NCBI RefSeq assembly: GCF_028641065.1
Contig: NC_073408.1
Location: 13,516,001-13,580,000 of the forward strand
Source of the DNA: Leucoraja erinacea
Taxonomy: Eukaryota
Direction of reading: 5' to 3'
DNA length: 64,000 nt
Shown: positions 2,915 to 62,772 of the stretch, one piece after another
How the letters are laid out: every line of letters starts with the position of its first letter
Position numbering within the stretch: position 1 is the first letter of the stretch
Translations under genes and position numbers: made by a program
The notes under the pieces: model-generated
What the model was told of the DNA's origin: nothing
Database searches by the model: none
What the model saw: only the letters and a program-made list of their open reading frames with translations

Positions 2915-3057
2915 GAGTCTGAAGAAGGGTTTTGGCCCGAAACGTCGCCTATTTCAGAGTCTGAAGAAGGGTTTCGGCCTGAAACATCGCCTATTTCCTT
3001 CGCTCCATAGATGCTGCTGCACCCGCTGTGTTTCTCCAGCAATTTTGTGTACCTTTG
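2915..3057 (+). mobile_element. Penelope pLTR-derived mini-element with two tandem hammerhead motifs
   Basis: TSD aacttcctcc at 2905-2914 and 3058-3067; 42-bp unit duplicated; body matches pLTR of Penelope fragments at 24295 and 32572. Confidence 0.85.
2919..2988 (+). ncRNA. Two minimal type I hammerhead ribozyme motifs (2919-2946, 2961-2988)
   Basis: CUGAAGA-A-GGGU(UUUG)GCCC-GAAAC-GUC and CUGAAGA-A-GGGU(UUCG)GCCU-GAAAC-AUC; conserved CUGANGA/GAAA core; activity untested. Confidence 0.7.
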
Positions 3058-3699
3058 AACTTCCTCCTAGAGTTGGCTGCTTTTAGACAGCTTCTTCCCA
3101 CTCTTACACTTACAATGCTCTGCTATTCTACAATGCTCTAAGTAGTCAGTAAAGTGCTTGATCTGACAGAGTAATTGATTCAGAATGACAGCAGAGAATG
3201 GTCCCTGAGCCTTTTTAATGAGGCTTCAACTCCTTGGTGAAGGTGCGGGGCCAATTAGCGCCAGCTAACTCCCTCCACCTCAGTTGATAGTTCTAAATCA
3301 ATTTAATAGCTATACTAACTCCTTCAAGTGATCTCCTCAGAGAGAAATGCTCATCTTTGCATGATGAAGGGAACAAAGTTATAAGCATAATATTTTAATT
3401 GCAGTCTATTTAAAAAATGAAAGTGAAGCTTTGCCTTGGGCAGTAATGATAAATGAGCGGTATCCTTTTGGGCACTTATTACATGGCCCATTATATTCTT
3501 TCAAAGAAACTGAAGAGCATTGTGGATAGTTTATTTGACCCCTTCCATCTAGTGCTACCATCCAGGTCAAAGTTCAACCCTGTGCTATATTTTAATGTAT
3601 TGTAATCCAAGTGCAAATAACAAATGGAACATGTGCCTTTTTTTTCAAAATCTGGATTGTGATCATGCTACCAATGGCATGATCCAATTGAAATAACAA

Positions 3700-3830
3700 A
3701 ATCGAAGATAGACACAAAATACATGGTTAATTCAGCATATCTGGAGAAATAGGTGATGTTTTGGGTCGAGACATTTCTTCATACTGAGAGTCAGGGGAGA
3801 AGGAAACTAGAGGTAACTAGGGTAGTGGAG
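3700..3830 (-). mobile_element. Decayed Penelope pLTR copy
   Basis: gaagatagacacaaaa...ggtgatgttttgggtcgagacatttcttca is the reverse complement of the pLTR/hammerhead consensus. Confidence 0.65.
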
Positions 3831-4379
3831 GGACTGAGAGAAAGGGACTATAAAGGTTACAAAAATTATCGGATTTAAGGTTACAAACATTATTGGATTT
3901 AGTTAAACATATTAGAAAGAGCATCTATGAAACTCATTCAAAATCTTCCGTAATAGTATTTTGTACCTACTATCTATTCCAATAGTTCTTTTTTCAATTT
4001 ATGCTCCTCCTTAAAGATTACATGACTGATGAAGTTTCAGATTATCTGTCCCAAAGTCGTCTTTTGTCACTCTATGCCAACATTTGTTTGATAACATTCC
4101 TGTGAAGTGTCCTGCGATATTTCACATCATAGTTGCTCTACAAACATGCCACTGTACTATTGCCCTCACAGGGATTCTGTTGATAGGAAATAATGCGTCT
4201 TCCATTCGTCCTCATGGTGGGCAAAGGCCAAACATGAAAAGACAAAAGGTGTGAGACAAAAGGATTGGAGTTGCGAATTATGAAGCCTGGGGAAGGGGAT
4301 GTAGGTAGAAGTGGCGAGGGAGGGGATATTTCCCCTTTACCTTACCCCTCTCCCCCCATGTGCCCTGCCTGAACCCTCA

Positions 4380-4616
4380 CATTTTTCACCCAGAGAGTTT
4401 TGAATTTGTGGAATTCTCTGCCACAGAGAGCAGTGGAGGCCAATTCACTGGATGAATTTAAAAGATAAGCTCTTGGGGCTAGCAGAATCAAGGGGTATGG
4501 GGAGAAGGCAGGCATGGGTTACTGATTGTGGATGATCAGCTATGATCACAATGAATGGAGGTGCTGGCCTGAAGGTCCGAATGGCCTCATCCAGCACCCA
4601 TTTTCTATGTTTCTAA
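4380..4616 (+). mobile_element. CR1/HER1 LINE 3' end
   Basis: tgtggaattctctgccacag...gtggaggcc (WNSLP..VEA), conserved 3' UTR and ttctatgtttcta tail. Confidence 0.8.
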
Positions 4617-4835
4617 GTAGCATATGGGTGGGAAATTGTAACTTTGTAAGCACCCTTCAGGGGCAACTATTGCACACCTTGGCAAGGTTTGCAAGCAAAT
4701 AATTTCACTGTGACTTGTCACATGTGACAATGAAGTTTTCATATATTCATTCACCTTGATGCCAGATTAAATAAAATCAGCTTGTTGATCACAAACTGGA
4801 GACTGATTACCAGACTGACACTGGAAATAAAAGGA

Positions 4836-5230
4836 AAGCCACAAAATGCTGGAGTAACTCAGTGGGACGGGCAGCATCTCTGGATAGAAGGAATGGGTGA
4901 CATTTCGGATCAAGACTCAGTTGCAAGGGAGAGGGAGACACAGAGATAAGGAAGGGTAAGGTGAAAAATGAGACATCAAAAGCATAGAATGTAGAGTAGA
5001 TCATTGTTAGCTAGGAGAAGGTGACAACAAAGCAACCAGAGATAAAATGTAGTCAGGGGGACAGTCAGACTGATCGGAGAACTGGGAAGGCGGGAGGATG
5101 GAGAGAGAGGGAAAGCAAGAGTCACTTGAAAAAGTCAATATTCATACCGCTGGGGTATAAGCTGCCCAAGCAAAAATTAGGTGTTGTTCCTCCAATTTGT
5201 GCTGGACTTCACTGACAATGGAGGAGGCCC
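4836..5230 (-). mobile_element. Penelope 3' fragment (end of GIY-YIG ORF, UTR, pLTR)
   Basis: Homologous to 24300-24605 (aagtcaat.ttcat.ccg.tggg...ccaagc...ctccaatttg...tggaggaggccc). Confidence 0.8.
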
Positions 5231-7325: not shown

Positions 7326-7480
7326 GGAGACACAGGAAACTGCAGATGCTGGTTTACAAAAAAAAGATGCAAAGTGTTGGAGTAATTCAATGGGTCAGGC
7401 AGCATTAAGGATAATATGAATAGGTACTGTTTCAGGTCAGGACCCTTCAGTGTGAAGAAGTGTCATGACCCGGAATGTCA
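7326..7480 (-). mobile_element. Decayed pLTR copy with head-to-head hammerhead relic
   Basis: ggaaactgcagatgctggtttac...gggtcaggcagca then gtgtgaagaagtgtcatgacccggaatgtc. Confidence 0.6.
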
Positions 7481-7899: not shown

Positions 7900-8043
7900 C
7901 TTGCTGGAGTAACTCAGCAAGACAGGCAACATCTCTGGAGACAAGGAATGAGATGCTGAGATGCTGCCTGTCCCGCTGAGTTACTCCAGCATTTTGTGTC
8001 TATCTTCAGTGTAAACCAGCATCTGCAGTTCCTTCCTACACAT
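7900..8043. mobile_element. Inverted pLTR dimer
   Basis: tgctggagtaactcagc...gcaacatctc arm followed by its reverse complement gagatgctgc...gctgagttactccagca, plus 3' tail. Confidence 0.75.
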
Positions 8044-8534
8044 TCCATAACATTCCAGATTTGTTATCATTTTTAGTCATTTTGTTTCCTGTCTCTGTCC
8101 CCGGCCAAGAGATGGAAAGAATTACCCTCGGGTCTGTACTGATTGCTTGATCAATCAAGAGAATACACATGGTAACTGGATGGAAAAGGAAGATTTGTAT
8201 TAATGTGGTAACCTGTACTTTGAGAGAATGCACTCCACAGCCAAAGAGATACTTAACACTCTGTGAAGACAGAAAGGACAAAATCATGGCACTGTGAAAT
8301 ATTGACGTAAAACTATGACTGACCTCCCCACCACTAGTATTTTGAAGTACTGATGAATCATCTTTGATCATGCCTTACATCAGATTTATTCCACGACCGA
8401 ATCTGTGATTGATATTTTAGTACACTGCAAGGAATGTTGCATTTTGGCCGATGCTTGTACCTTAGTAAAGTGTCAATTATGCTGTTTCATCATTTGTAAA
8501 GAGCAGGAATTTCTCCTGATATCTTAATCCATTG

Positions 8535-11973: not shown

Positions 11974-12234
11974 TTATAAACATACTTGACTAAATTTATA
12001 TATAGAAATTGCTGCTTTGTGTTGATATCCTTAATAATATGGATTGGCAATTGTGTTTCCGAACTTACATTCTCCAGCTTTGCCCTGATCTTCTCCCAAT
12101 TACAGCAGGAGAATGGAGGTTTCCCATGGAAATTCCATTTTGGGTGTTTCGACAGAGGAATATTAATCAAATGAAAGCACATTGGGTTGAGCGATCATGA
12201 ACATTTGTTTGAAACAAGACAGTTTGATGACCGA

Positions 12235-12355
12235 AAGGACATAAAGTTGTGGAGTAACGCAGCAGGTCAAGCAGCATCTCTGGAGAACAGGAATAGATGC
12301 TGTTTCAGTCCTTCAGACTGATTCTTTGTGTTTTTTGTGTTCCTTGTTTCTACAG
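12235..12355. mobile_element. Decayed pLTR copy (minus strand) with plus-strand tail
   Basis: ggagtaacgcagcaggtcaagcagcatctctggagaac...cttcagactga then gttccttgtttctaca. Confidence 0.6.
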
Positions 12356-13954: not shown

Positions 13955-14080
13955 GAGAAAATGCTGGAAATACTCAGAAGGTCATGCAGCATTTGTGGAG
14001 AGATCACCAACCTGAAATGCTAATCTCCACAGATACACCCTGACCCTTTGAGCTGTTTCAGCATTTCCTATTTTTTATTA
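13955..14080. mobile_element. Old inverted pLTR-like dimer
   Basis: aaatgctggaaatactcag...gcagcatttgtggag / ctccacagatac...gagctgtttcagcatt. Confidence 0.5.
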
Positions 14081-14485: not shown

Positions 14486-14581
14486 AAAGTCTGAAGAAGG
14501 GTCTTGACCCGAAACGTTACCCATTCCTCTCCAGAGATGCTGCCTGTCCCACTGAGTTACTCCAGCTTTTTGCTTCTATCT
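14486..14581 (+). mobile_element. Solo pLTR mini-element with intact hammerhead motif (14491-14518)
   Basis: TSD tctgcttcc(a/t)atgg at 14472-14485 and 14582-14595; CUGAAGA-A-GGGU(CUUG)ACCC-GAAAC-GUU. Confidence 0.85.
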
Positions 14582-17209
14582 TCTGCTTCCTATGGGACTG
14601 GACGATAGAATAGTGCCTTTTATTTCCTCCCTTCCCTTGATCCAAAGATCCAGACACTCTTTCCAGATAAAATACTGATTTTCATGTGCCTCCTTCAATC
14701 TACGTTACTGTATTTGATCCTAATGTGGTCACCTTTACAATGGGAAGATCAAGAGCAGATTCAGTCGCTACTTTTTTTCGACGCTATTCAGTCTCCAAGC
14801 ATAAACTTGACCATTGTCGTCTCGGCTAATTGTCTCACTCTGACTCGACTCCTACACTTGACTTAGTTGCAACTTCTCCACATTCAAAATGCATTCCTGG
14901 CTGCACTACCATTAATTTTCCCTTTCATTGTCATCCTTTTCATTCATTAATCTCCCTGCCCTTCTCTTTATCCCTGTCATTCTCTATTGTTCATACCTTC
15001 ACTTCTCGTAATTTTTTGCATTTAGTTTAACTAACATTTTACAACTTTGATGAAAGGTCACAGACCTGGTATATGAATCCTATTTCTCTTTACTGCTACA
15101 ACCCAGCCTGCAGAGTTTGTGCATTATTTTTGCTTGAATTTCAGATGTCCAGCATTCTCAGCACAGTGCCTTTGAACCCAGGCTTTAGTGACTTACAAAG
15201 GGAATTATGTGTGTGAAATTTAAGAATCTAATAGCTGAGACTCTACTATCCTGTTGAGAATTCTGATTTGTGCCAAGAAGTAGTTTGCTGCTTTCTGTTA
15301 CAAAACTACAAGATAAACTTATCCATCCAATTTTGTGTAGCAAAACAAAAATACACAAGGAATAGACTGAATGCCATAACAATCATAGTTCTGTAACTGC
15401 ACAGCACTCATTTCCCCTTCTTAATTTTTAACAGTGAAATTTTGTCTTGAACTTCAGCCACAGCAATCATAAAGTGTTGACCTGAAAGGGATTATTATAA
15501 CCTGAGGACCCATTCTTCAGAGCAAGTTAAGTGGAGAGAGATTGCTAGTAAGGTTCATGAGGCAGGGCTGGGTGGAGTGAAAGACAATTGAAGCACAAGT
15601 GTCTTGGTCACATTTTAAGTCTAAACTCTGTTAAAGTTAATAGATCCCAGAGACTTCAAATGGATGCACAAACATAATTGAAGTCAGTGCTTGAAGGACC
15701 AGCATCATTAATTTCTTTGCTAAATAGAATTCATTTCAAGTATGGCTGGTAATTTTGAGTAGACGAGTTTTTTTTTAAATTTGTCAACATTGCCAACATA
15801 CATTGTGTGTGTGAACTTGCTATTTTGCTCAAGCATCAAATAATCTTTTGTGCCTTGTTACTGTGCATTATTTACTCAGTGAAAGCACGAGCAGTAGGGT
15901 TTCCAAGAAGTTGGAAGAGAGACAATGAATTCATAAGGTTTGAGAAATGTTAAAGTTTGAGTTCCCAGCAAAACATTATGCGAAGAAGTTCGAATGTAGA
16001 ACCAGTCAATCCTTTGATTGTGGTCTTTCAGTTGACTAGGAACAAAAACATAATCTGTCGAGTAGGTGTGGGGATCATAATGTATGAATGAATCATGCCT
16101 GATTTCAATGAAAGCTGTAGACTTGTTTTGTGCTTTTTATTCATTGTAAAAAATTGTGCATGCAGCCAGTGACAACAATGTAGCTGGCTGCACACACCAT
16201 CAGGGTCTGAATAGTGCAATGCACCAATTAAAGCCTGGGGATTCTTCTCAGCTATCCCATGGAGTTGAGGATGACTTGCCACTGTTCTAGTTCTGAGGAA
16301 TCTTAATCCCGTAGAAAGTCTGCAGATTATGTTCCAGGTGGGGCAAATGGCGTTTCATGGGCCCAGCGGATTGAATGTTTGTTTTATTGCACAAGCTTGT
16401 GCTTGGCCTTCAGGTGATCATCCCACAAAGACGCAACTCTTGACTTTCCCAGATACTTCCCCACTGGTTTGATCACTGTTGCTCTGAGGATTTCTGTGCA
16501 TTCCTGAGGGAAAGAGAAACCATGGGTTTCCCGTCTGTCAGCGATTGGCAGTGGCGATTCACAATTTAACTGTGGTGAGTTGGAGAGATGTTCCTTAATC
16601 AAACAGAACTAGGAGACTCCAAATACACTCAGCAGCATGAGAGCATATAATTCTGGAAGTCAACAACAGACCTTCAGTGTATAGCGGGCTAAAGTCAGAA
16701 TAAAATTGCTCTACAATCTTGCACCATTCTGCTGTTTTGCACTCATTGTCATATTTATTGGTGCATTCGTCATTATTGTATGCATTACTCTGTGAACTTT
16801 ATGTGAACAAATAATTTCACCGCACCTAACTGGTGTATAGGCCAATAAACTGAATTCACCACAATCCACTCACTCACCTTCAACAATTGTTTAGGACTAT
16901 CACCGGACTACATATGTGACAGTTCATGCTCAAACAATGAGAACCGCACCATACAGATCTCACTGCTTGAACCTACTGCCAACTAATGAAATGTGACAGA
17001 TACATCATCCAAGTAGATTAATCAACTTATTCTTGTAACTGTGCCCTGCAACTTGCCCAAGGCATTATTTGAAACCAAACCATTTTCGGCAGCTTCATCA
17101 GTGACTTTCTCTCCATTATAAAGTCAGAAATGGGGTGATTATTGCTTATTGTTACGTCTTATCAATCAGTGTTTAAACACCGTAACCTGATCATCGAAGC
17201 TCATTAAGC

Positions 17210-17745: not shown

Positions 17746-17770
17746 ACTACACCTCTAAACATGGACCAAG

Positions 17771-17865
17771 GATGAAGAAGGGTCTCGACCCAAAACATCA
17801 CTCGTTCATTCTCTCCAGAGATGCTGCCTGTCCCGCTGTTTCTCCAGCTTTTTGTGTCTTTCAAA
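17771..17865 (+). mobile_element. Solo pLTR mini-element (decayed hammerhead)
   Basis: TSD ggaccaag at 17763-17770 and 17866-17873; tgaagaagggtctcgacccaaaacatc. Confidence 0.8.
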
Positions 17866-20478: not shown

Positions 20479-20493
20479 TGCACCATGACTATT

Positions 20494-20617
20494 CTGAAGA
20501 AGGGCCCGACCCAAAATGGCACCCATCTGTGTTCTCCAGAGATGCTGCTTGACTCGTTGAATTACTCTATCACTTTGCATTCTTTTGCGTTAACTAGCAT
20601 CTGCAATTCCTTGTTTC
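20494..20617 (+). mobile_element. Solo pLTR mini-element starting exactly at CUGA
   Basis: Degenerate 15-bp TSD tgcac(c/t)atg(a/g)ctatt at 20479-20493 and 20618-20632. Confidence 0.75.
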
Positions 20618-21034: not shown

Positions 21035-21625
21035 TAGAGACAAGGTACTGCAGATGCTGTTTACAAAAAAAATGACACATAGAAACATAGAAAATAGATG
21101 CAGGAGTAGGCCATTCAGCCCCTCGAGCCTGCACCACCATTCAATATGATCATGGCTGATCATCCAACTCGGTATCCTGTACCTACTTTCTCTCCATACC
21201 CCCTGATCCCTTTAGCCACAAGGGCCACATCTAACTCCCTCTTAAATATAGCCAACAAACTGGCCTCAACTACCTTCTGTGGCAGAGAATTCCAGATATT
21301 CTCCACTCTCTGTGTGAAAAATGTTTTTCTCATCTTGGTCCTAAAAGATTTCCCCCTTATCCTTAAACTGTGACCCCTTGTTCTGGACTTCCCCAACATC
21401 GGGAATAATCTTCCTGCATCTAGCCTGTCCAACCCCTTAAGAATTTTGTAAGTTTCTATAAGATCCCCCCACATAGTGCTGGAGTAACTCAGCAGGACAG
21501 GCAGCATCTCTGGAGACTATGGACAGGTGACCGTTTTGCGTCGGGAAGAAGAGTCCCAATCTGAAACATCATGTTCTCCAGGGATGCTGCCTGACCTGCT
21601 GGCTTATTCCGGTACTTTGTATCGA
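21035..21625. mobile_element. Inverted pLTR dimer split by a CR1 insertion
   Basis: pLTR halves 21035-21082 and 21470-21625 rejoin at cacatag. Confidence 0.7.
21083..21469 (-). mobile_element. Young CR1/HER1 LINE 3' end
   Basis: GDLIETYKILKGLDRLD...TRGHSLRI...FFTQRVENIWNSLPQKVVEA; TSD cacatag at 21076-21082 and 21470-21476. Confidence 0.92.
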
Positions 21626-21758
21626 TTTTTCATCCCAGGAAAAGATTAGGAGGAGCAAATAGGAAATTTACTCTGTCGGCTGATTGCCCTGAGTTTCTAC
21701 TGTTAAAAATGAGGGAAATCAACTGGGAGATTTAAGAAATAATCACTCACTTCTACCT

Positions 21759-21857
21759 GTGTAGGAAGGAATTGCAGATGTTGATTTTAAACTGAAGATA
21801 GACACAAAAAGCTGGAGTAACTCAGCGGGTCAGGCAGCACCTCTGGATAGAAGGAAT
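21759..21857 (-). mobile_element. Solo pLTR mini-element lacking the hammerhead
   Basis: TSD tcacttctacct at 21747-21758 and 21858-21869. Confidence 0.85.
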
Positions 21858-24294: not shown

Positions 24295-25494
24295 CTAGGT
24301 AGACCAAAATGCTGGAGAAACTCAGCGGGTGAGGCAGCATCTATGGAGCGAAGGAATAGGTGAAGTTTCGGACTTCTTCTGACTGATGTGGGGGTGGGGG
24401 GGGAGGGGGGGAGGAGCTGGAAGAAGAAAGGAATAGGCGGAGACAGTGGGCTGTTGGAGAGCAGTGAAGAGGGAAAAAGCACAGACACATGAAGTTGGAG
24501 AAGTCAATGTTCATGCCGTTGGGGTGTAAACTACCCAAGCGAAATATGAGGTGCTGCTGCTCCAATTTGCGGTGGGACTCACTCTGGCCATGGAGGAGGC
24601 CCAGGCCAAAAAGGTTGGATTTGGAATGGGAGGGGGAGTGGGAGGGGGAGTTGAAGTGCTGAGCCACTGGAAGATCAGGTTGGTTATAACGAACTGAGCA
24701 GAGGTGTTGGATGAAACGATCGCCAAGGCTGCGCTTGGTCTCAACGATGTAGAGCAGTTGACACCAAGAACAGCAAATGCAATAGATGAGGTTGGAGGAG
24801 GTGCAGGTGAACCTCTATCTCCCCTGGAAAGACTGCTTGGGTCCTTGGATGGAGTTGAGGGGGGAGGTAAAGCGACAAGTGTAGCATTTCTGGCGGTTGC
24901 AAGGGAAAGTACCAGGGGAGGGGGTGGTTTGGGTGGGAAGAGACAAATTGACCAGGGATTTATGGAGGGAGTGGTCTCTGCGGAAAGCTGAAAGGGGAGG
25001 AGATGGGAAGATGTGGCCAGTGGTGGGATCCCGTTGGAGGTGGCAAAAATGTCGAAGGATAATCTGTTGTATGTGACGGCTGGTAGGGTGGAAGGTGAGG
25101 ATAAAGGGGTCTCTGCCCTTGTTATGAGTGGGGGGATAGGGAGTGAGAGCAGAGCTACGGGATATAGAGGAGACCTTGGTGAGAGCCTCATCTATAGTCG
25201 AAGAGGGGAACCCCCGTTCCCTAAAGAAAGAGGATTTCTCTGATGCCCTGGTTTGGAACCAGGGCATCAGAGATGCAGATGGTTTGGAACCTCATCCTGG
25301 GTGCAGATGCGGCATAGACGGAGGAATTGGGAGTAGGGGATGGAGTCCTTACAGGAAGCAGGGTGGGAAGACGTTTAGTCCAGATAGCCATGGGAGTCAG
25401 TGGGTTTGTAGTAGATGTCAGTCAGCAGTCTGTTACCTGCGATGGAGGTAACTACAGACAGATTTTTCCAGCATCTGCAGTTCTTTCTTAAACA
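24295..25494 (-). mobile_element. Truncated Penelope retrotransposon (RT C-terminus/linker plus GIY-YIG endonuclease pseudogene and pLTR)
   Basis: FFRERGFPSSTID...TFPCNRQKCYTC...RFTCTSSNLIYCICCSWCQLLYIVETKRSLGDRFIQHL..PVAQHFN; in-frame stop; TSD actgtaatctta at 24283-24294 and 25495-25506. Confidence 0.92.
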
Positions 25495-26214
25495 ACTGTA
25501 ATCTTATTTGTTTATTATCATCCAAAGGGTCACTGCTCCAACTCTTAAATGTGTGAAGCATTTATTTTCTATCCTTGCAGTTTGTTTTACACTGCCCAAA
25601 CCTTTTGCCTAATTTATTTTATATACCTCTGAACTGAATAAAACCCTGCTAACTGATGTTTTCCCCCAGCTGTTATCTGCAGCTGGATGCAATTAATAAT
25701 ACAATTTCTAGTCGTAGAGGGTGTTACATTTTTCATTAACGGTGCAATCTATCAGTGCAAACTTGTAAATCTGTAGTTTTGCATATATTGCAAATTAGAC
25801 GTATGAATGAATATGGTCCCAAATAGCACAATATGTACTGGGCTATTTTTTGATGTGTATCGATGGGAAAAAGGTAAAGCTGGATGTTTTTTGAAGACTT
25901 CATCTTTAATCTGTCTGGCATTCAAGCAGCAGGAACTGTTGAAATTTCAGACAAACAGAATCAGAGTTTGCATGCTATTGCCGGAAACAAATGATGTAAC
26001 CCTTAGAAGGAAACATTTCACCAATGAAGCTAGCATTTTGCTATCTGCCCTCATGTTGGTCTCACATGTGGATATGTTCTGGAAACCTCCATTTTGAACT
26101 GCGGCATTCAAATTTGACATTCATCCTCAGGCACGAAATGTTTGCAGCAAGTCAAGATAGTTGTGGTCAACTAATCAAGTAAGTTTAAAAAATGTTAAAA
26201 TGTACAATATTATC

Positions 26215-29671: not shown

Positions 29672-29765
29672 AGTTGAAGAAGAGCCCCGACCAAAAATGT
29701 CACCCACCAATGATGTCCAGAAATGTTGCCTGACTCACTGAGTTATACCAGCACTTTGTGTCCTA
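29672..29765 (+). mobile_element. Decayed solo pLTR copy
   Basis: tgaagaagagccccgaccaaaaatgtcacc...ctgagttataccagcactttgtgtc. Confidence 0.6.
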
Positions 29766-32291: not shown

Positions 32292-32512
32292 AGGTACACA
32301 AAAAAGCTGGAGAAACGCAGCGGGTGCAGCAGCATCTATGGAGCGAAGGAAATGGGCAACGTTTCGGGCCGAAACCCTTCTTCAGTCTGAAGAAGGGTTT
32401 CGGCCCGAAACGTTGCCTATTTCCTTCGCTCCATAGATGCTGCTGTACCCGCTGAGTTTCTCCAGCTTTTTTATGTACCTTCGATTTTCCAGCATCTGCA
32501 GTTCCTTCTTAA
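32292..32512. mobile_element. Palindromic head-to-head pLTR dimer
   Basis: 95-bp arms 32291-32385 and 32387-32481 around one base; 16-bp TSD acattggtaacctgga at 32276-32291 and 32513-32528. Confidence 0.92.
32358..32414. ncRNA. Back-to-back hammerhead motifs (minus 32358-32385, plus 32387-32414)
   Basis: Both read CUGAAGA-A-GGGU(UUCG)GCCC-GAAAC-GUU. Confidence 0.7.
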
Positions 32513-32571
32513 ACATTGGTAACCTGGAGATGAACTGTACCAGAAAACTAAGTTTGCGTAAAGCATTGATA

Positions 32572-32926
32572 GCACTTCAACTCCCCCTCCCATTCCGTAT
32601 CCGACCTCTCTGTCCTGGGCCTCCTCCACGGCCAGAGTGAGCAACACCGTAAATTGGAGGAACAGCACCTCATATTCCGCTTGGGTAGTCTGCATCCTGG
32701 TGGCATGAACATTGAATTCTCACAATTCAGTTAACCCTTGCTGTCTCCTCCTCTTCCTACCTCTCCCTCAGCCCTCGGGCTCCTCCTCCTCGTTTTCCTT
32801 TCTTCTCCCTGCCTCCCCCTACCCCCTATCAGTCTGAAGAAGGGTTTTGGCCCGAAACATTGCCTATCTCCTTCACTCCATAGATGCTGCTGCACCCGCT
32901 GAGTTTCTCCAGCATTTTTGTGTACG
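32572..32926 (+). mobile_element. Penelope 3' fragment with pLTR hammerhead at 32834-32861
   Basis: HFNSPSHS..LSVLGLLHGQSE..RKLEEQHLIFRLGSLHPGGMNIEF; short TSD attgata. Confidence 0.88.
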
Positions 32927-33374
32927 ATTGATATCACCATCTGGACTTGCAGGCTGAGAGTTTTCTAGTCAGCTACATTGAACACTGCTTGGATACCAGT
33001 TTGGCCAGCATCAAATGCTTTGCACAGGATGTTATGAGCTATTTCCCACTGTGTGCCTGCATTTGACAGTCATCTACAGGTATTCCCTGGGTGAGTTAAG
33101 AGCCAGTTGAGTCATTGAATCCGCCTCTCTCCGTTGACACAAAATATAAGTCTGCTAACTGTCTTAAAATGGGGATAACGTGGATTTTAATTGCTGTTCT
33201 CAAGGTCCCAATCCACAGCCTATATGTTTACAATGCACACAGGTCTTTAGTGGAAACCACTGTGTAAATTTAACGAGAAACAGCTCATGTTTCAGGTCTG
33301 GGATCTCCCATTAGAACTGAGAAAGAGAGAAACAAGTCAGTCCAAGTTGTAGAGAGGGGGAGTGTGTAATAATA

Positions 33375-39489: not shown

Positions 39490-39933
39490 AACAAGGCCCA
39501 GCACAAATTGGTGGAACAACCCCTCATATTTTGCTTGGGCAGCTTACACCCCAGCTGTATGAAAATTGACTTCTCTAACTTCAAGTAGCCCTTGCTTTCC
39601 CTCTCTCTCCATCCCCTCCCCTTCCCAGTTCTCCGACCAGGCTTGCTGTCTCCGACTACATTTAATCTCTGTTTGCTTTGTTCGTTGCCTTGTCCCAACT
39701 AACAATGTTCTATTCTACATTTCCCTTGATCTCCATTCCCTTTGTCCTATTTTCACACCATACATTTCCTTATCTATGCACCTCCCACCCCCCCTGACAT
39801 CAGTCTGGAGAAGGGTCTCGACCCAAAACCTCACCCGTTCCTTCTCTTCAGAGACGCTGCCTGTCCCGCTGAGTTCCTCCAGCATTTTACATCTATCTTC
39901 GATTTAAACTGGCATCTGCAGTTCCTTCCTACA
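39490..39933 (+). mobile_element. Penelope 3' fragment with pLTR
   Basis: Reverse-orientation homolog of 4836-5230; degenerate TSD catt(a/g)ct(c/g)tttgtgt. Confidence 0.85.
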
Positions 39934-41297
39934 CATTGCTGTTTGTGTGTCAGGAGCATCTGTGGTTTATCAGACGGTCCCTGACCGTGTGTTCAATTTG
40001 AGTCTACTTTCAGCATCACACACCATTTGCTTTTTTACTTGCAGCTGCCTTGAACATTGTTGATGATAGACCAATGCTCTTCTTCTCTTCCTCATTATCT
40101 TCCATCTAATCCTCCTCAACTTCTCTTCCTCTTGGAGGTCCTCAGGCCAGGGCTCCATTTGTCTGATGGCAGGTAGTCTGGTAAACAGGAGTAGGATATG
40201 TACCTGGTTTATACTGCATGGTGGCTCATTTTCAGGCCGATGGTGCTGTCTGCTAATCTCTCTCTGCTGCTGTAATATATAACTTAATGCTCACCTGCAA
40301 GGGCTGGATGACAAAACGTGAGAAAACTCAAAAAGAAAACAAATTAGTTTTAAGTTAAGAAGAGGGGAGTTGAAGGGTGGATAAAACAAAGGGAATATTT
40401 CTGATCAGATGAGAGTACAGATGCCTTGGTGTTGAGCTGTGGGTGAAACCATGTGGTAGATGGATTAATGAGAACTGTTAGAGAGACAGAGGGGGAGAGA
40501 AACTGAAAATGAAGAAACGTGTAAAAACTATGAGGGAGAGTTGTAGGGATTACCCTGAATGTCAGGGCAGGTTAGTGGAGAAAGAATAACTTATTGAGCT
40601 ACGGTAATTGAATATTTCTTCCATTCCCCCCCCGTATAGCTTTTATATGCAGCTTGCCTTTAGACGATGAGCTCTGTCTGTTCATTGCATGATGTAAAAG
40701 TTGAATGTGATACACACAATGTCCTACCGACAATGTCAAGTGTTTTATTTCCACACCATAACTTCGTATGTCATTTATTCCCTTCTGCTATGAAGCTACA
40801 ATTACAGAGCAGTCTCACTGTTTATAGCTAATATCTGTACTTTCAAATCAAGAGCTTTGTGCAATTCACTTAAACATCTCCAAAATGAAAGGGTTGATTT
40901 TAAAGTAAAATTACTAAAGTCAGTTAATTTATTGCTATTAACGTATTCATAAGGAATCTATTCTACTTATCTGGCATGATTGAACATAAATCCAGATTGA
41001 TAATTAACTGACTTGACAAGAAGCATTAAGTAGAGTTAGAATTTATATAAACAGCATATAAGAATATCAATTTACAAATCTTTGCAATTAAACTAATTTA
41101 ACCGTTGTTCAGGAGGTTAAACAAAAGAATGGCAAATAAAGTAATTTTAAAGTAGTCGCATTCAAAGTATGCTGCCCACGAAATATGGCAATGTAATGAC
41201 ATTGGCCTATCCAATCATCGCAAGAGGAAATCGGGTGCCATGTAAAATAATATTGGAGAGTATGTTCATTTGGTGTTGTTCAATATGTTACTTTGGT

Positions 41298-42721: not shown

Positions 42722-42920
42722 TGTAGAAATGAGGAACTACAGATATTGGTTTACAAAAAAATACACAAAGTGCTGGAGTAACTCAGCAGGTCATGTAGCA
42801 TTCCTGGAGAACAGGAATAGATGATATTTTGGATCTGGACCCTCTGTCGGGACCTGGAACATCACCCATCCATGTTCTCCAAGAAGTTGCCGGACTCGCT
42901 GAGTTACTCCAGCACTTTGT
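42722..42920. mobile_element. Decayed inverted pLTR dimer
   Basis: acaaagtgctggagtaactcagc...ctggagaaca / tgttctcca...gctgagttactccagcactttgt. Confidence 0.75.
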
Positions 42921-46300: not shown

Positions 46301-46779
46301 GATGACAATGATCAAGGACGTTTTCAATTCCTGGTGGGATTTTGTACAGTGCAAGGTCGAAATTGATAAGAGTCATTGGAAGCATGCCAAATTTCCCTGA
46401 ACTGAATAAGATCTTAACTCTCTTCACAGATGCAGTCTGACTTTTTGAGCATCTTGAGACTTTGTATTTTTATCCTGCAAAGTAACGGGGGGATTTTAAG
46501 ACGACATGAAAATAATGCAAATTGGTTCATTATCTCTCACTCTTTGGGTTAGAAACTTGTGACTTCTGAGTTTTGGACATTCTAAACTTTTGGATGCCAT
46601 GCATTGTGCTTTTTGCTAACTCAAGAAGTGGACTTTTCCACAACTTTCAATGCTGCATCTTGCAGGAATCAGCATTAATATTAAATGGAATTTGCTATCT
46701 TATCATTGGAAATGAAGCAATTCGATATAGTGGTTTGGAAAGAGCTTATGTTTTTTTAGGAAGCCCTGCCGGTTTTTAT

Positions 46780-46910
46780 TTAGGAAGGAATTGCAGATGC
46801 TGGTTTAAACCAGAGATAGGCACAAAATGCTGGAGTAACTCAGTGGGACAGCCAGCATCTTTGGAGAGAAAGAATGAATTACGTTTCGGGTCGAGTCCCT
46901 TCTTCAGACT
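46780..46910 (-). mobile_element. Solo pLTR with hammerhead motif (46880-46907)
   Basis: Reverse complement reads ctgaagaagggactcgacccgaaacgta. Confidence 0.8.
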
Positions 46911-47162
46911 TATTCTTTCAGACTGGCAAATTTTTGTTTTCTAGTTTTGCTGAGCCATGTAAATATAACAATTATAATAAATTTGGCTTATTGTTAACAC
47001 ATCACAATGATAACAAACATAAGAGAGGAGAACATTTGCATTTCTGGGGCACTATCACTTGAAACAATTATTTCACAAGTGTTACAAATAGCTGGACTAG
47101 GAGAATAATGGCATGGTTTGGCAAAGTCCAAATTAACATGGTGCCACAGTGAATCTAATTGT

Positions 47163-47323
47163 CTGGCAGCATCTCTGGAGAAAAAAAGGTGGGTGATACT
47201 TCAGGTTGGAAACTGATCCAGGGTCAGAACCATGGTCTTAAGAAGTGTTCCGACCCAAAATGTCACCCATCCTATTCCTCCAGAGATGCTGCCTGACCCG
47301 CTGACCCACTCCAGCACTTTGTG
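47163..47323. mobile_element. Decayed inverted pLTR dimer
   Basis: ggcagcatctctggag...gggtgatacttcagg / aagaagtgttccgacccaaaatgtcaccc...ctccagagatgctgcc. Confidence 0.7.
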
Positions 47324-47606
47324 ATTACATCCACACATTTAAACTCCATTCACGCAATCTATCAATATCTCGATCTATCAATAATTGATTTATGTCGATA
47401 TCATGTTGCAGTCATCATATCCTTATCCCAACTTGCCCTTCCACCAAATGCATCATCAATGAAGCAATGACTGCTAAGGGCTGGTGGGGTCAGATATAAA
47501 ACATATCTCTCCCTCTTGGCTCAGTAAGTTACAACATTCTATAGACCCAATAGTAATCCCAGGGATGGAGCAAGAGATCAAAAGTCCCCACATCGAACAT
47601 TCTTCT

Positions 47607-47700
47607 CAGTCTGAGCAAGGGTCCCGTACCGAAATGTCATCTGTCCATGTCCCACCACAGATGCTGCCTGCCCTGCTGAGTTCCTCCAGCAGTTTCTTTT
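47607..47700 (+). mobile_element. Decayed solo pLTR
   Basis: cagtctgagcaagggtcccgtaccgaaatgtc...gctgagttcctccagc. Confidence 0.7.
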
Positions 47701-47784
47701 TTTAAACTTTTGATTGCGAGTGATGGATTTAAAAATGACACTGCTGCTGACCCTGTTGTTGCCAGTCAACTGGACCCTGACAAC

Positions 47785-48975: not shown

Positions 48976-51029
48976 TAGAATGAAGATGATTGTGATATTC
49001 CAATTAAATCTGGTGACTACATTCTGGAGACTGAAGATCTCATATACCTATGGGATTGAATTAAAACATACAGTTTGCATTGAACTATCCTCCATTTACT
49101 GCACTTTTCTTACTTTTACTGAGAGATGTTGCTGTTGTTCCCGTTAACAGGTTAAAATTGGCTGTTTTGTGAGTAAATTCAATTCAAATGTATTTACTTG
49201 AAGCTTTAGAAAGGAAAATAGTATTTGTTCACAACATAGCATCAGCCAATGAGATGGAGCAGAGAAGGATGTGTGACTGGACTCTGAGGAAAGAGTTAAT
49301 TACAGGAAATTAATTCAATTGACTCCAAAGATTGTCGGTTTTACGAAATTATAGCAACCTCCCATGATTTAAAAAAAAAATATTCTCTAGAAAAATCGTA
49401 TTGAGTGAAGGATAATTACGTATGAACAATGTGCGTAACAAATCTCAGCCACTTACAGCAGATGAATAGGCTATCATCTCTACTCTGGCTAGCTATATAG
49501 CATTATCACTCCATGCAGCCATAAAAAGCACACTGCCTTGCAAATCTAACCAGCAGAGATAAGAGAAGACATTTCAGGGCTGTTACTGTTTAGAAAGTCA
49601 TATTTGGCTCGTTTTTTTAAAGTTTATTGTTAAATTCTATAATGTTGTGTTTATTTGTGTGCTGCAATGGCAACTCAAATTTCACGACACCAATTGGAGT
49701 ATGTGACAATAAATGTGTTTTGTACTTTTGTTTTAATTTATTGTTTTAGACAATATCAAGTAACAACCTTTTAACAATCAATTAAAGTCCACCATAGATG
49801 TTAGCAAGTGTGTCTAAAACAACTGAAATAAAGGGACCAGTTAAAATAAAAGGCTTTAATTCTCGTAGGCAATACCAAGATAGAACATTGCTGTAAAAAT
49901 AATGTAAGCATGGTTAATTCATTATTAAAAAGTATGGTTAATTAATTATTAAATTGTAATGATCAGATACTGTAGATGGATTTTCAGGGATTGTGCACGG
50001 GTTTGGGTTGAGCCAGAATAAAAAAAATGCACATTGCAGTCTGCAGCAAGAGGAACTCCTGTTTGATTTCAGCTCTATGGTTAAAGCAGAGAATTTTGGG
50101 TTGCTCACCTTGGAGCAAAGGAGGCTGAGAGGAGATATGATAAACATGTACAAGATTATGATTAGTTGAGACACTCGGCAGATGGTTGAAGGACCCGCAG
50201 TGCACATTTAAAATTCTGTGCAAAAAAAACTCCAAAGGAGGGTGTGGGAAGACATTCTTGTGGAAATTAGTTATGATCTGAAATTCACTGACAGTAGGAA
50301 TGATAGATAGAGGAACAACCTGGCTTTTGAAAGAAGGGAGCATAATTTACAAGGCCACGGGGAAGGAGATGGGGAATGGGACTGACAGGATTGATCTGAC
50401 AAAGATGCAATTGGAAAAATGGTCTCCTTCAGTGCAGTAGCCCTTCTGTAATTCATTCAGCGCCAGGCTTAAGCACTGAATGTCATTACAACGGTCTCAC
50501 CAACAGGAATCCGTAATGCAATTTACCGATACAAATATAAGAAACAATTAAATGTTCTTGGAAATTAGTGCGGATAACAATAAATTTGAACTTTCACAAT
50601 ACAATCCAGTCAAATATATCCCTGTGTAAAAATTATTCTGGAAATAATGTCCATGCTCGTGGAGAAATTGAGGTGTTAATTTTGAATTGGAGGCAAAAAA
50701 TGGTTTGCAATGATATCAGGCATTAAGGTTGCTGCAGTACAGCAAAACTAAAGCCTGTGTGCTGAATAACATTACACAGCCATGCGCCATGGTTATTGAA
50801 ATACACCTGGAAAAAGTAATTAAAATAATTTACAGGCCTTTGAAAGTAGAGAGATGTATTCCATTTTCTCCCGAGATGCTGCTGAGTTATTCCAGCACAT
50901 TGTGCCTATCTTCGGTATAAACCAGCATCTGTAGCTACTTTCTACATAAAGAGATGTTAATTGTTGTCAGGACATATGGGATAAAGGGCTTCAGTGATTG
51001 TAGTCTAACAATCGCTTGCCGTACACTTC

Positions 51030-52230: not shown

Positions 52231-52480
52231 GCACCTTGTCCAAATGTAACTGAACCTTCCAGCTCCTCTACTCAGTATCCTGACTGATGATGGCCATGAA
52301 GTACCAAAAGCCTTCTTTACCAACCTATCTGCCTATGATGCCACCTCCAGGGAACTGTATAGCTGTATTCCCAGATCCCTTTGCTCCACAAACACTCCCC
52401 GGGGACCCTGTCACTCACTGTAACAGTCCTGCCCTGGTTTCACTTCCCAAAATGAAAATACCAAAACATTGTGTATATAT

Positions 52481-52578
52481 GTGTAGGAAAGAACTGCAGA
52501 TGTTGATTTAAATTGAAGGTACACACAAAATGCTGGAGTAACTCAGCGGGACAGGCAGCATCTCGGGAGAGAAGGAAT
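52481..52578 (-). mobile_element. Solo pLTR lacking the hammerhead
   Basis: Same extent as 21759-21857. Confidence 0.8.
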
Positions 52579-54868: not shown

Positions 54869-54870
<2 letters not shown>

Positions 54871-55113: not shown

Positions 55114-55175
55114 ACACATACATATTTAAATAGATGTATATATAATGTGTGAATTGTGTGTATATATATATATAT

Positions 55176-58119: not shown

Positions 58120-59510
58120 GAGAATAGATAAAGTTGTCCCTTTATTTAATAAGGGCAGCAGAGGTCGACAAGGTAACAGCGGGTCAGTGAGTCTTATATC
58201 AATGGTGTGAATCTTTTGCAGAAAATTGCTTGGGACAGGGTTTCTGTACATTCTGTACAAGCAACTGTCAGCATGTCTTTGAGTGGGGAAAATTCTGTCG
58301 CAATAACTTGATTGTATATTGAGAAGATAATAAAGGCGATTGATGAAGGCAGATATTGGCTGTATGTTCTTCAACAAAGCACTTGACAAGGCTTTGCATG
58401 ATTAACTAATCCTGAAAGTTAAGGCACGCGATATTCATGAGAAGCTGGCTATCTGATCCAAAATTGATCGGATAGTCATAAAAGGATGCTTTTCTGATTG
58501 GAAGTCTGTGCTGTAGAATTGGTGCAGGACACTTTAGTGTGTGTGACATATTAATGACTTGGATGGAAATGTAGAAGATATGATTAATATATTTGCATAT
58601 GATACAAAAATTAGTGATGCTGTGTAGAACAAGGAAGGTTGCTTTAGGCTTCAGCAGGAAATAGAATGGATGGAATGTTGGTGGTGGTTAACAGTTGAAA
58701 TTTAATCCAGCCAAATGTGAGTTAATGCATTTTGGGAAGGTTAATCAGGGTAGGACAAATACAGTGAATGGTGGGGCATTAAAAAATGTTGATGAACAGG
58801 GAGACCCGGGGGTCCAAGTACGTTGTTCCCTTAACGTTTCATCATGGATCAATAAGATGGTGTAGAAGGGATCCAGCAAGCTTGCTTTCCCAGGCTAAAA
58901 CATTGAATAGTCTGAAGAAGGGTCTCAACCCGAAACATCACCCATTCCTTCTTTCCAGAGATGCTGCCTGTCCTGCTGAGTTACTCCAGCATTTTGTGTC
59001 TATCTTTGATTTAAACCAGCATCTGCAGTTCCTTCATACACATTGAATAGAGTGTTGTGTGTGGTCGTGGTTGCTACAAAAAGTACAGAGTGGCTGCACT
59101 GTAGAGCGTGCAGAGATTCACCAGGATGTTGGCTGGATAGGAGGACTATAGGTATGTGGAGAGATTGGATAGGCAGGGTTTGATCGAAGGAGGCTGAAGG
59201 GTGACCTGATAAAAATATACATGAGGCATAGATCAATTGTTGTACCATTAGTTCACATGGTAAGGGTTCAAAAATAAATAGTTTGGGTTTTGGGTGAGAG
59301 GAAGGAGATCTGAGTGAAATTATTGTTTCATGGAGAATGACTGATGTATGGAATGTGCTGCCTGAAGAGGTGATAGACACAAGAGACATTTAGGCAGACA
59401 CTTAAATAGGCAAAGCACAGAGAGATATGGTATTCATGCTGGATTAGAGTAGATGGGCAAAAAAGTTGCCTGAGATGAGATGGGCTGAAGGGCCTGTTTC
59501 TGATCATGAC
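58120..59510 (+). mobile_element. Old CR1 LINE RT-to-3' fragment
   Basis: Decayed PVSL.S, F.KA.DK, INDLD and FA.DTK motifs; tail atgggctgaagggcctgtttc. Confidence 0.8.
58911..59039 (+). mobile_element. Solo pLTR mini-element with hammerhead motif (58912-58939), inserted in CR1
   Basis: TSD acattgaatag at 58900-58910 and 59040-59050; ctgaagaagggtctcaacccgaaacatc. Confidence 0.88.
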
Positions 59511-60084
59511 ACTAAGAGGACAATGATTCAGATTTTGCCTTAAAAAGGAAGCTGAATATGTCTGCCATTAATTGATTTTTCTTCCAGTTTTCTTCCAAAT
59601 CTAGCAATTACAGTAATTCTAAGGTCAACGCAAAGTAGCAGAATAACCTGTCTGTCTTGGCCCCCGAGTACTTACTGTACATCCATAATCAGTCACGTTG
59701 AAGGACTGAAATCCTTGAAACCTGACAGTTTTAAGGATGAAGAAGGATGAACTAAAATGGGTGAATACAATGTCAAATCATACACAGAGAAAAAAAAATA
59801 GAAGGTAATAAAGATCAGCTTGAGAAAGAGCTCTGTTATCTCTATCTTTTTTAGGACAGACTTTAAAGTTGCAGCACAGAATCGCTGAGTCTGCACCGAC
59901 CAACAACCATCCCGTACACTAGCACTGTTCAGTTTTTTCCACCATTCAATTAGAGTATGTCCGACACCACCACCAAATACTCGTCCATCCAACCTGTTCC
60001 ATATCTGTTGATATTAAATAGCTGCATCAATCTTAAAACATTGAATTGGGGGGCTTTGGAAGAACAAGTTCCTGATTTCCACTT

Positions 60085-60385
60085 ATGGTCACAGAGTCAA
60101 ATAACATGCAAACGGACCCTTCGGTCCAGAGTCTGCATTGACCACCAAGTCCCTTTACATCAAGCTAACATTAAGCCCATTTGGTTCTCCTCACATTCCA
60201 ATCAACTGTTCCTAGATTCTACCACTCACTCAAGCTACAGTGGCCAATTACCTACTAACTTGGCATCTTTGAGATGTGTGAGGAAAACCTTGCAGTCACA
60301 GGGATAACAAGCAACCTCCGCAGAGACAACACTCAAGGTCAGCATTGAACTTGGGTCGCTGGAGCTGTGGGACTGCAGCTCTACT
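60085..60385 (-). mobile_element. Decayed HE1-type SINE
   Basis: aaacggacccttcggtcca...ggtcagcattgaacttgggtcgctggagctgtg. Confidence 0.7.
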
Positions 60386-62267
60386 ATTTGTTAAAAAAAA
60401 TATTTTTAATTATTATATATTCATTTAAAACAATACTTTGTTCTCAAATAGCCTGTTTCTTATTTTGTTTTTTTTTTCAAATGCTGTTCTGCAAAGGTAT
60501 AACTAATTATTGCATAATTAACCTTAAAATTATTAACCATATAATTAGTTGGGTCAAATTTTGACATCACAAGGAAATGCCCCCACACTCCCGCTTCATC
60601 AAACAGATATTATATTGCAGTATATTGGACAGTGTACAGAGGGAGTACCAGCATTGTGGCACTAACTATGATTGGTACCTTACCTGTTCTTGGAAAACAC
60701 ATTCAATATTGAGCAACTATCAAAATATCCACCAGGCATCTCAATGCAGGTTGTTTTTTTTATGTGAATGCCCATTTATCGTGCCCGAGGCAGTTATGAG
60801 CCTCTGGTCCCATAATGAACCACTTTCCTCGATCCTCATACACGTGCGTAATCATAGTGCATGTCCGAGCAAAGTTTGTTCCTTCCATGCCTGCTTCCTC
60901 TGCTTTGGGAAATGTAGCACCATCCGGTTAATTGCTTGCCTCTTGGGTAACATGGCAGTGGGAAAGTTTGGAATGTTAACTTTCTTGCCTGGGCTGCTTC
61001 AGGTTGTGTTGGACATTAGCACAGGAGCTGAGGACAAATGAAGAAAAATGTGGACACGTTCAACAAACAAAGTGCATTAAAACCTCTTGCCTTAAAGTTT
61101 CTCCAGGCAAATTATGTCAATTTATCCAGATGACTTGCAAGTTGTCTCTTCTGTCCCATTAGTGTTAGAGAGTCGATTTTTCTCAATTATTTCTCACTCA
61201 GTAACTGAATCCCTATCAATGACATAAAAGAATAGGAAAAGATTCTAGTGAGATGCAAGAAAGAGAAACTGTTTCTAAAATGTAAAGGGAGTTGGTTAAG
61301 ATCCCATTACATTAAATAACATTACAGTTGGAATTTAAATAAAAATGGGACAGGTTTATGTCCAATTTTGGACTGCTTCCTGTTCAAGCTGCAGCAGTGT
61401 GAAATGACATCGGGATTCCATTAAAATGGGCTTCAAGTCACCATGTAGACCTGTAATTGCCACCACAAACAATTAGACTGCAAAGTCTCAATCCATTTAT
61501 TGCATTTCTTGTGGTGTATACCTGTAAAGATTTTGAAGTCTTTTTTATCTTCTGTCGTTCTCTTCCTTGCTATCCCGCAAAACTGAACAGTAATATCTTG
61601 CCAATCTTACTTTATGGATGAGCAGCTCATGTTTTGTCTTTGGGAGGAGAAAGGATTGACTTAAGGGTTCAGTCTGCACTTAACTGGGAAAAGGAATAAA
61701 TATTGAGAATGGTTATTATCCTGCATAACAGCACACTGCAATCAAAAGGCTTTGCATCTTCTCCAGCCATGGAATGTATTAAATCCTAATTGTTAGCTAT
61801 CACCATGAAGAATCATTAATTTGTGAGAGAACTGATCAATTGAGAGTCCATGGCTGTTGATCAGACTCATAGCTCCACCACACCCACTATTGTTTGGATT
61901 GCTTTGTAGTGACAGCAATAAATAGCCTGCAATTCAAATGAAAGGCTTCACATAAGATAACAACATAGGCCTCGAGTCAGTTCCGAGGATTCCAGACTGC
62001 ACTTGATCCTCTTTCACATACCATTTGATCACCATGGATCAGAACTACAATGGGATTTACCCTCCATTGCTTCACATTGTTTGATAACTATACCAACAAT
62101 GAATCTATGGCATAAATTTTATGATTTCAATTGATCCATGGTTTTTTGGAAGAGACATTTCTACTCTTCACTTTTACAGAAAAGTTTCCTGACTTCTTAT
62201 TTCCCATAGTTTTATCCAATTATTTTGAAGGTCTTTCCAATTATCCAATTATTTTGAAGGAAATTTC

Positions 62268-62470
62268 TTTCCGGCGGCTGTCACTCTACTCAACAACGTA
62301 CCTCGGTGACTGCCAATCACCCCCCCCCCCCCCCCCCCCCCAGACACTTATTATTATTTATTCAAATCGTTTGCTATGTCGCTCTTCAAGGGAGATGCTA
62401 AATGCATTTCGTTGTCTCTGTACTGTACACTGACAATGACAATTAAAATTGAATCTGAATCTGAATCTGA
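62268..62470 (+). mobile_element. Rex1/Babar-like 3' end with (TGAATC)n tail
   Basis: catttcgttgtctctgtactgtacactgacaatgacaattaaaattgaatctgaatctgaatctga. Confidence 0.65.
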
Positions 62471-62639
62471 GGTCCCCTTGCAAGCTTCACACAACTATAA
62501 ACTCCTTTGGTAAGCTGAAGCTCCAACTGGTCCAACTGGTCACTGTAAATATCCTTGCCGTATTTTGCCTATCAGAATATTCCCTCTACCATGGCTCTCA
62601 CAGTTCCTGCCCTATTAAAAACCCACATGAGATAAGTTT

Positions 62640-62772
62640 GTGTAGGAAGGAACTACAGACGCTGGTTTAAACCGAAGATAGACACAAACAGCTGGAGTAA
62701 CTCAGCGGGTCAAGCAGCATCTCTGAAGAAAAGGAATAGGTGACGTTTCGGGTCGAGACCCTTCTTCGGACT
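62640..62772 (-). mobile_element. Solo pLTR with hammerhead variant (62742-62769)
   Basis: Reverse complement reads ccgaagaagggtctcgacccgaaacgtc (U4 changed to C). Confidence 0.85.

Follow-up and report, generated by a model that had tools for sequence, protein, structure and literature searches.

In this study, we analysed 64,000 nucleotides of the genome of the skate Leucoraja erinacea (NCBI RefSeq GCF_028641065.1, contig NC_073408.1, positions 13,516,001 to 13,580,000; hereafter the window) and the short repeats scattered through it. These repeats are solo pseudo-long terminal repeats (pseudo-LTRs, pLTRs) of a Neptune/Nematis-type Penelope-like element (PLE). They carry the known minimal hammerhead motif and are probably by-products of the parent element's own insertion reaction. 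The family is a very abundant member of the known PLE hammerhead type and not a new system. A first-pass annotation of this DNA had assigned the repeats to Penelope and had recognized a minimal type I hammerhead with a bulged A and an ACGU palindrome; both assignments are supported and fit the published description of PLE hammerheads (PMC4209133).

A profile built from nine window copies gave 39 matches in the window, 36 of them above 9 bits, and five reversed or shuffled windows peaked at 6.1 bits. A longer profile returned 34 window matches at 18 bits or more, with 18 copies on the plus and 16 on the minus strand. The "about 20 copies" counted initially is thus an undercount (34-36 by the profiles), while the reported length of 95-145 bp agrees with the two lengths of approximately 95 and 131 nt found here. 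The 36 largest contigs were sampled at round coordinates in sixty 10-kb stretches, which contained 268 copies, or 4.5 per 10 kb (bootstrap 3.7-5.3). This extrapolates to approximately 0.98 million copies genome-wide (0.8-1.16 million), and the pLTR repeat makes up 4.1% of the sampled DNA. At 5.3 copies per 10 kb, the window is ordinary. The exact pattern of an intact hammerhead core has 49,019 matches in the genome, and a control pattern has none.

The three Penelope endonuclease fragments named earlier (24295, 32572, and 39490) are all present in the window, and a fourth endonuclease-linked copy was found at 4834 to ~5200. Window fragments are 47% and 35% identical to a full protein with a reverse transcriptase (RT) and a GIY-YIG endonuclease, and fragments of the 24341-25291 type number 50,537 first-look candidates in the genome. 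Twenty long copies were all 5'-truncated, several with an inverted unit at the 5' junction. Walking upstream led to partial tandems, in which the endonuclease end is followed by a pyrimidine-rich untranslated region (UTR), the unit, and the 5' body of the next element; the unit lies directly upstream of a 5' body in 17 of 25 fetched loci. From this order, the unit therefore belongs to the pseudo-LTR. Several UTR types occur among the 44 endonuclease-linked copies, and each type that was traced far enough ends in an endonuclease remnant. Short copies and endonuclease-linked long copies have a common sequence, and the commonest short type also runs into the 5' body at rare loci.

The protein of a parent locus (L032) matches the Pfam families RVT_1 and GIY-YIG, both below the curated cut-offs, and is 44-72% identical to proteins with both domains; protein P0011 passes both. 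Its best named homologs are from sharks and rays (61-72% identity). Pfam returned no match on the window's Penelope fragments, and a PDB sequence search gave no match. The open reading frame (ORF) at 24815-25291 of the window contains a C-x4-C-x2-C linker between RT and endonuclease. A CX2-5CxxC linker is a character of Neptune and Nematis PLEs (PMC8557442), and the linker, the single character used for this assignment, therefore points to one of these two clades as the parent.

The copy ends were mapped in 302 copies (the even sample plus the window), 42 of which continue into the UTR. Among the 260 that do not, 95 begin at profile columns 2-4 (A, G, and T before CUGAAGA), a peak 2-3 nt wide that rises ten-fold above neighboring positions, and 30 begin at columns 5-8. 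The boundary falls in TCA(+1)GT, an initiator-like motif directly ahead of the ribozyme. Target-site duplications (TSDs) of 9-18 bp flank 18 of 109 solo copies at all loci, compared with 0.6% of 325 swapped-flank controls. Independent insertion, proposed earlier from 8-16 bp TSDs, is borne out by this controlled excess; within the window, candidates of 8-16 bp were seen at 11 of 26 insertions, a count made without controls. The 3' ends of the 18 TSD-defined solo copies fall into two groups, at columns 87-101 and 130-137. The two ends are ~35 nt apart, and the difference is the known PLE "tail". In 105 tailed copies, the sequence never extends into the 5' body.

A large share of the copies form inverted pairs, a feature that, like the shortness of stem I, the first-pass annotation did not mention. 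In the even sample, 94 of the 268 copies belong to head-to-head pairs and four to tail-to-tail pairs. A single TSD encloses the whole head-to-head pair in 23 of 70 cases (4 of 278 in the control), and paired arms are more alike than random copies. The tail is present on one arm in 57 of 72 pairs, on neither in 15, and on both in none, where 11.3 would be expected (p ~5e-6); an unbiased subset of pairs also had none with two tails (0 of 52; 7.3 expected). The long window PLE at 24297..25497 fits this rule: its 5' end bears an inverted tail piece, its 3' end has no tail, and the insertion is flanked by a 12-bp TSD. A PLE tail at only one end has been described previously (PMC8557442). Such strict exclusion suggests one enzyme per strand, each with a different start site.

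These footprints resemble the in vitro behavior of the Poseidon element PAc of the anole (Frangieh et al. 2024, PMC11167929). Its RT starts at two internal sites that bound the tail, lie about a tail length apart, and are ~100-130 nt past the ribozyme; both nicked strands are extended, the ribozyme is dispensable for insertion, and no RNA ends occur at the cleavage site. The skate evidence differs in being a genomic footprint rather than biochemistry, and the skate parent has the CX2-5CxxC linker of Neptune/Nematis. We propose that transcription of the skate element would start at TCA(+1)GT, the initiator-like motif immediately 5' of the ribozyme, and the template would be uncleaved RNA. The endonuclease would nick both strands 9-18 bp apart, and reverse transcription would begin inside the RNA at ~+95 or ~+131. 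After 95-131 nt the enzyme would reach the RNA start, where it would sometimes add an untemplated base, seen in the copies as an extra G, before the short cDNA is sealed in. Extension of both nicked ends, one from each start site, would produce a head-to-head pair, whereas read-through transcripts would give longer copies reaching the 3'UTR and endonuclease. In the fullest form of this proposal, which we regard as plausible though somewhat short of an even chance, solo and paired pLTRs are Penelope strong-stop DNA: a dimer primes both nicked strands with one enzyme per start site, reads the capped RNA through to its first nucleotide, and inserts the resulting DNA. If so, the genome records the transcription start, the cut stagger, and a strict rule of one tail per insertion, and ~49,000 intact cores could be switched on in host transcripts by Penelope protein or dimerization.

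Copies that start at G(+2) follow a G 1,603 times and a C or T 1,203 times, against a flank expectation of 23% G. Untemplated G from cap copying is known for LINE-1 insertions. When the 46% of extra-G cases that remain after inspection (see below) are set against all C/T cases, G still amounts to 38%. Clean solo copies have the extra G in 9 of 10 and 8 of 17 cases, small numbers that are partly inflated by A-to-G mutation. We regard this evidence for an untemplated base at the RNA start as suggestive. The pLTR of Drosophila Penelope contains a promoter with an initiator (PMC2377424).

The hammerhead motif is genuine by descent. Skate copies share with published PLE minimal hammerheads the CUGANGA and GAAA core, the bulged base after A9, the G10.1-C11.1 pair, the CG palindrome without loop III, the UH site, the place in the pLTR, and the predominance of single dispersed copies. 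The motif is as initially described, except that the core is fully intact in only 4 of the 17 window copies that span it (2916, 14488, 32273 (-), and 32384); Rfam detected no hammerhead family in the window at E<=5. Relatives were taken from metagenome loci (36-55% protein identity; 80 fetched, 39 with enough downstream DNA). In 18 of the 39, the motif lies 68-290 nt past the matched ORF region on the sense strand, with no antisense case and one occurrence in 780 shuffles. Stem I, which is outside the search descriptor (the core is inside it), has 43 Watson-Crick pairs of 48 across 16 distinct stem families, compared with 17.3 after shuffling, although the families are partly related and the significance is overstated. 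The downstream 60 nt of the relatives are no more alike than shuffled sequence and are unrelated to the skate unit. Excess conservation of the ribozyme over the rest of the pLTR, which the first-pass annotation had named as a test, is seen across relatives as co-variation in stem I (the core itself being part of the descriptor). Within the genome it fails to reach significance: subfamilies differ at 0 of 11 core columns and 12 of 57 other columns (p=0.19).

Stem I of the skate family is short. It has two contiguous base pairs in 33 of 42 endonuclease-linked parents, followed by a 2x2 mismatch and two further pairs, and copies that lack the UTR can form no more than 2 bp; it has 3-5 bp in 13 of 16 relatives. 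Helix I of published PLE hammerheads has 4-5 bp, with 2 bp reported for D. virilis (PMC4209133). Stem II had been described as kept while its loop varies. The 748 double-changed cores do not show covariation: by hand count, 15 of the 100 listed pair, approximately as expected by chance, 71 have A-A, and 14 have other combinations. In folding of five natural contexts, the stem II probability was 0-0.29 and the ribozyme fold was never that of minimum energy; a strong purine/pyrimidine hairpin was predicted at the 5' end of the unit. Inserted copies decay neutrally. Among sampled copies that span the core, 18 of 113 are still intact. G12 has mutated in 37% of 119 full-span copies, like other CpG sites, and non-CpG core positions are changed in 6%, compared with 9% at non-split downstream positions. 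In published assays, the monomer is inactive and dimers have low activity (PMC4209133), and one of nine frog dimer elements was cleaved (bioRxiv 10.64898/2026.07.22.740005). The unit at 2916..3058 is the sole cis-dimer candidate in the window. Most likely, the ribozyme works for the parent, processing multimeric transcripts as a dimer with help from protein, and is carried without function in the short copies.

No RNA record was listed for the stretch itself; the RNA data come from one poly(A) short-read run of another species, a relative (~6% of the reads), aligned to a natural partial tandem. Reads break off at +131 (909), ~+95 (451 and 465), and G(+2) (439), and these points coincide with the copy ends. 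The unit is covered 10-20 times more deeply than the endonuclease part, with the two strands about equal, and 92% of reads run on into unrelated sequence; they are passenger transcription. No pile-up of starts or ends was seen at the cleavage site in this poly(A) RNA, which is a weak test that misses small circles. The ratio of read directions is flat across the site (1.14, 1.14, and 1.14), with low power given that 18 of the 268 sampled copies are intact. On L114 (1200-1870 and 2080-2450), body reads are mostly in one direction, from ~2:1 in the endonuclease to several-fold in the 5' body, compared with 1.14:1 in the unit; for a library of the usual stranded type, the excess direction would be antisense.

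Several observations weigh against insertion from the RNA start as proposed above. The anole element belongs to the Poseidon clade and the skate parent does not, and no intact full-length parent was found among 150 scored matches (longest open frames 601 and 576 aa). More than half of the non-UTR copies (135 of 260) begin inside the unit, after column 8, by ordinary 5' truncation, and about one quarter of "solo" copies reach 2-5 nt further upstream. By eye, approximately 54 of 100 listed extra-G cases have another explanation: ~35 lie at junctions with an inverted partner, 10 reflect short duplications within the copy, and 9 are mutated UTR. A-to-G mutation, seen in 6 of 72 UTR copies, accounts for further cases. 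The relative's reads contain no position where many molecules begin, so that no transcription start was mapped. Finally, the letters upstream of the boundary (C/A-A-G) also resemble exon ends. In a rival explanation, all short copies arise by plain 5' truncation of long or read-through Penelope RNA, and the 5' pile-up marks an RT stop at the ribozyme hairpin or a poly-C tract. Truncation points do spread through the unit and up the element, the predicted 5' hairpin is strong, and single motifs have already been read as truncated PLEs (PMC4209133). The narrowness of the ten-fold peak, its position at the initiator-like motif, and the excess of G at the boundary are poorly explained in this way, and we consider truncation alone unlikely. 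We consider it most improbable that a splice acceptor (pyrimidine tract, CAG|UCUG) forms the boundary and that short copies derive from spliced or back-spliced RNA. The acceptor-like sequence is accompanied by a donor-like AAG|GTATG ~170 nt downstream, and the D. virilis intron ends at helix I (PMC4209133). However, the exon-exon junction occurs only twice genome-wide, both times as chance-like insertions, and a back-splice origin was rejected on this count; it is absent among the 15 shown of 88 joints in the relative's RNA, TSDs abut the unit (in a search that admitted near TSDs only), and upstream flanks are diverse.

Insertion as a by-product of the parent's reaction also has to be weighed against the original proposal of a protein-free mini-element system, read here as a retrozyme- or SINE-like (short interspersed element) family whose own master copies would be transcribed, self-cleaved, perhaps circularized, and inserted anew. 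In a retrozyme, two or more ribozyme units follow one another in tandem, and the transcript is cut into linear and circular RNA (PMC7229834; bioRxiv 10.64898/2026.07.22.740005). About a million copies with TSDs, the number of intact cores, and the report of PLE-pLTR-derived retrozymes in vertebrates, including one chondrichthyan (bioRxiv 10.64898/2026.07.22.740005), speak for such a family, and the 95-131 nt units are non-coding, apart from perhaps the opening codons of a putative parent ORF. Yet only 7 of 268 copies have a same-strand neighbor within 300 nt, and only 5 of 260 5' ends lie at the cleavage site +/-2 (columns 31-35), with no excess over neighboring positions. Stem I has 2 bp in most parents and no more than that without the UTR, endonuclease remnants precede every UTR type traced far enough, and the RNA is found on both strands about equally and runs into the flanks. 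Rare tandem exceptions are L048, window 2916, and L231-L233. The last (~1200-1900) are internally deleted PLEs with two direct hammerhead units spaced by ~370 nt and 210 nt of 5' body between them, all from a single event whose flanks were duplicated; they are retrozyme-like dimer candidates and do not account for the window copies. We regard a separate system as very unlikely, since tandem neighbors and cleavage-site ends are so few and the sequence is shared with endonuclease-linked copies. Cleavage of host pre-mRNA, also suggested earlier, found no support in the CpG-like loss of G12 or in the RNA profile, although the latter is weak enough to leave room for cleavage by a minority of copies.

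Partial tandems forming pLTRs, 5' truncation, an inverted 5' copy, a 30-40 bp tail at one end, TSDs, and occasional solo pLTRs are features of endonuclease-positive PLEs (Craig et al. 2021, PMC8557442; Arkhipova et al. 2013, PMC3846280). The skate family differs in that solo and paired pLTRs, with TSDs, are its main product; the rotifer paper explains solo pLTRs without TSDs by recombination or deletion, and inverted junctions by self-priming. Animal non-LTR retrozymes (PMC7229834; bioRxiv 10.64898/2026.07.22.740005) resemble the skate units in being non-coding, having a type I hammerhead, kinship to PLE pLTRs, and many monomers. They are tandem and processed to linear or circular RNA, whereas the skate copies are single or inverted and not bounded by the cleavage site. 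PLE hammerheads, tails, and inverted pLTRs have been published, and the skate family is of use first for its scale: ~4% of the sampled DNA of a cartilaginous fish is ribozyme-derived pLTR, and the exact intact cores compare with ~4,000 in coelacanth and ~9,000 in Xenopus, counted with a different descriptor. A literature search found no description of the skate pLTR family; subscription journals, Repbase/Dfam, and the supplements of the 2026 preprint were outside its scope. The second use concerns mechanism. The origin of PLE tandem and inverted ends is described as an open question (PMC8557442). Pairs that strictly exclude a second tail and share one TSD, together with the sharp 5' boundary, are footprints of mechanism that can be counted in vivo, match recent in vitro results, and are testable genome-wide.

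Table 1 Penelope-derived features of the window (positions of the 64,000-nt stretch)
Position	Strand	Feature	Details
485..574	+	decayed unit
2916..3058	+	unit with 42-nt direct core duplication	2916-2954 intact, from 2958 mutated; 13-bp TSD
3699..3785	-	decayed unit and short 3'UTR piece
4834..5200 (end approximate)	-	fourth endonuclease-linked copy	unit 4834-4918; 5' part of ribozyme deleted; candidate 12-bp TSD
7336..7480	.	old head-to-head pair
7902..8044	.	head-to-head pair without ribozyme	plus arm tailed; extra decayed copy at 7830-7888 (-)
12230..12319	-	unit, stem II deleted
13958..14071	.	old head-to-head pair
14488..14583	+	solo unit	core intact; without tail; 14-bp TSD
17770..17859	+	solo unit	without tail; 8-bp TSD
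20493..20613	+	decayed tailed unit
21470..21629	.	old head-to-head pair
21755..21857	-	solo tailed unit without ribozyme	begins 4 nt beyond cleavage site; 12-bp TSD
24297..25497	-	5'-truncated PLE	inverted tail piece 25464-25497; RT-end/CX4CxxC linker/GIY-YIG remnant 24341-25291; then 3'UTR; hammerhead unit with internal deletion, without tail; 12-bp TSD 24283-24294 and 25495-25506
29674..29762	+	decayed unit
32292..32512	.	head-to-head pair, single insertion	minus arm without tail; plus arm (from 32384) tailed; both cores intact; 16-bp TSD 32276-32291 and 32513-32528
32571..32930	+	endonuclease C-terminal remnant, 3'UTR, and hammerhead unit (from 32831)	candidate 11-bp TSD
39490..39937	+	endonuclease remnant, longer 3'UTR, and tailed unit (39802-39937)	core mutated
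42731..42920	.	old head-to-head pair	minus arm tailed
46776..46910	-	solo tailed unit	core letters intact; fourth stem II pair broken
47142..47329	.	old head-to-head pair
47608..47714	+	decayed unit
50859..50949	+	solo tailed unit without ribozyme	candidate 11-bp TSD
52478..52578	-	solo tailed unit without ribozyme
58909..59045	+	solo tailed unit	11-bp TSD; ACGU palindrome broken
62637..62772	-	solo tailed unit	U4 -> C

The window also contains other repeats (10048-10179, 11721, 12980, 37478, and 63592; 21074-21331, 22915-23172, 41579-41819, 47785-48070, and 51455). Some of these are presumably SINEs with a tRNA-like head, resembling the HE1 type of sharks and rays, and others CR1/L2-like 3' ends. 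LINE (long interspersed element) RT remnants lie at 18974-19516, 28196-28483, and 55153-55657. A Pfam search of eight candidate host-gene ORFs in the window gave no match.

In the parent, L113, L114, L115, L116, and L121 are near-identical partial tandems with >1 kb of common upstream flank, several on small unplaced contigs, and probably represent segmental or tandem amplification of one near-full-length locus. The donor-like AAG|GTATG is located at ~1880 of L114 (minus strand), ~170 nt after the unit start, and an ATG ~20 nt past the cleavage site opens ~30 codons in some subfamilies; the parent may have a 5' intron here. A stingray protein (P0021), listed as a divergent protein kinase domain 1C isoform, shares 64% identity with the Penelope ORF across 78% of the query, and its annotation likely includes Penelope sequence.

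The A-A lineage of stem II was considered as a signal of selection and rejected, because all 12 of the 12 members fetched trace to a single inverted pair that was amplified within a different repeat. In L136-L147 (G000 C1, C2), this head-to-head pair with the A-A mismatch lies inside a GC-rich repeat with common flanks, which likely has several hundred copies, clustered near the C1 end. The carrier is possibly a non-autonomous DNA transposon that captured the pair. L048 (5222-5872 and 3448-3813) contains short tandem and inverted arrays of 33-66 nt unit pieces, resembling minisatellite expansion. Rfam matches to mir-722 and other hairpins were rejected, as they arise from inverted pairs and are below gathering scores; the inverted pair at 32350-32422 of the window scores 48 bits against mir-722 (gathering 81). 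Inverted pLTR pairs form long hairpins and could be mis-annotated as microRNA precursors or enter small-RNA pathways.

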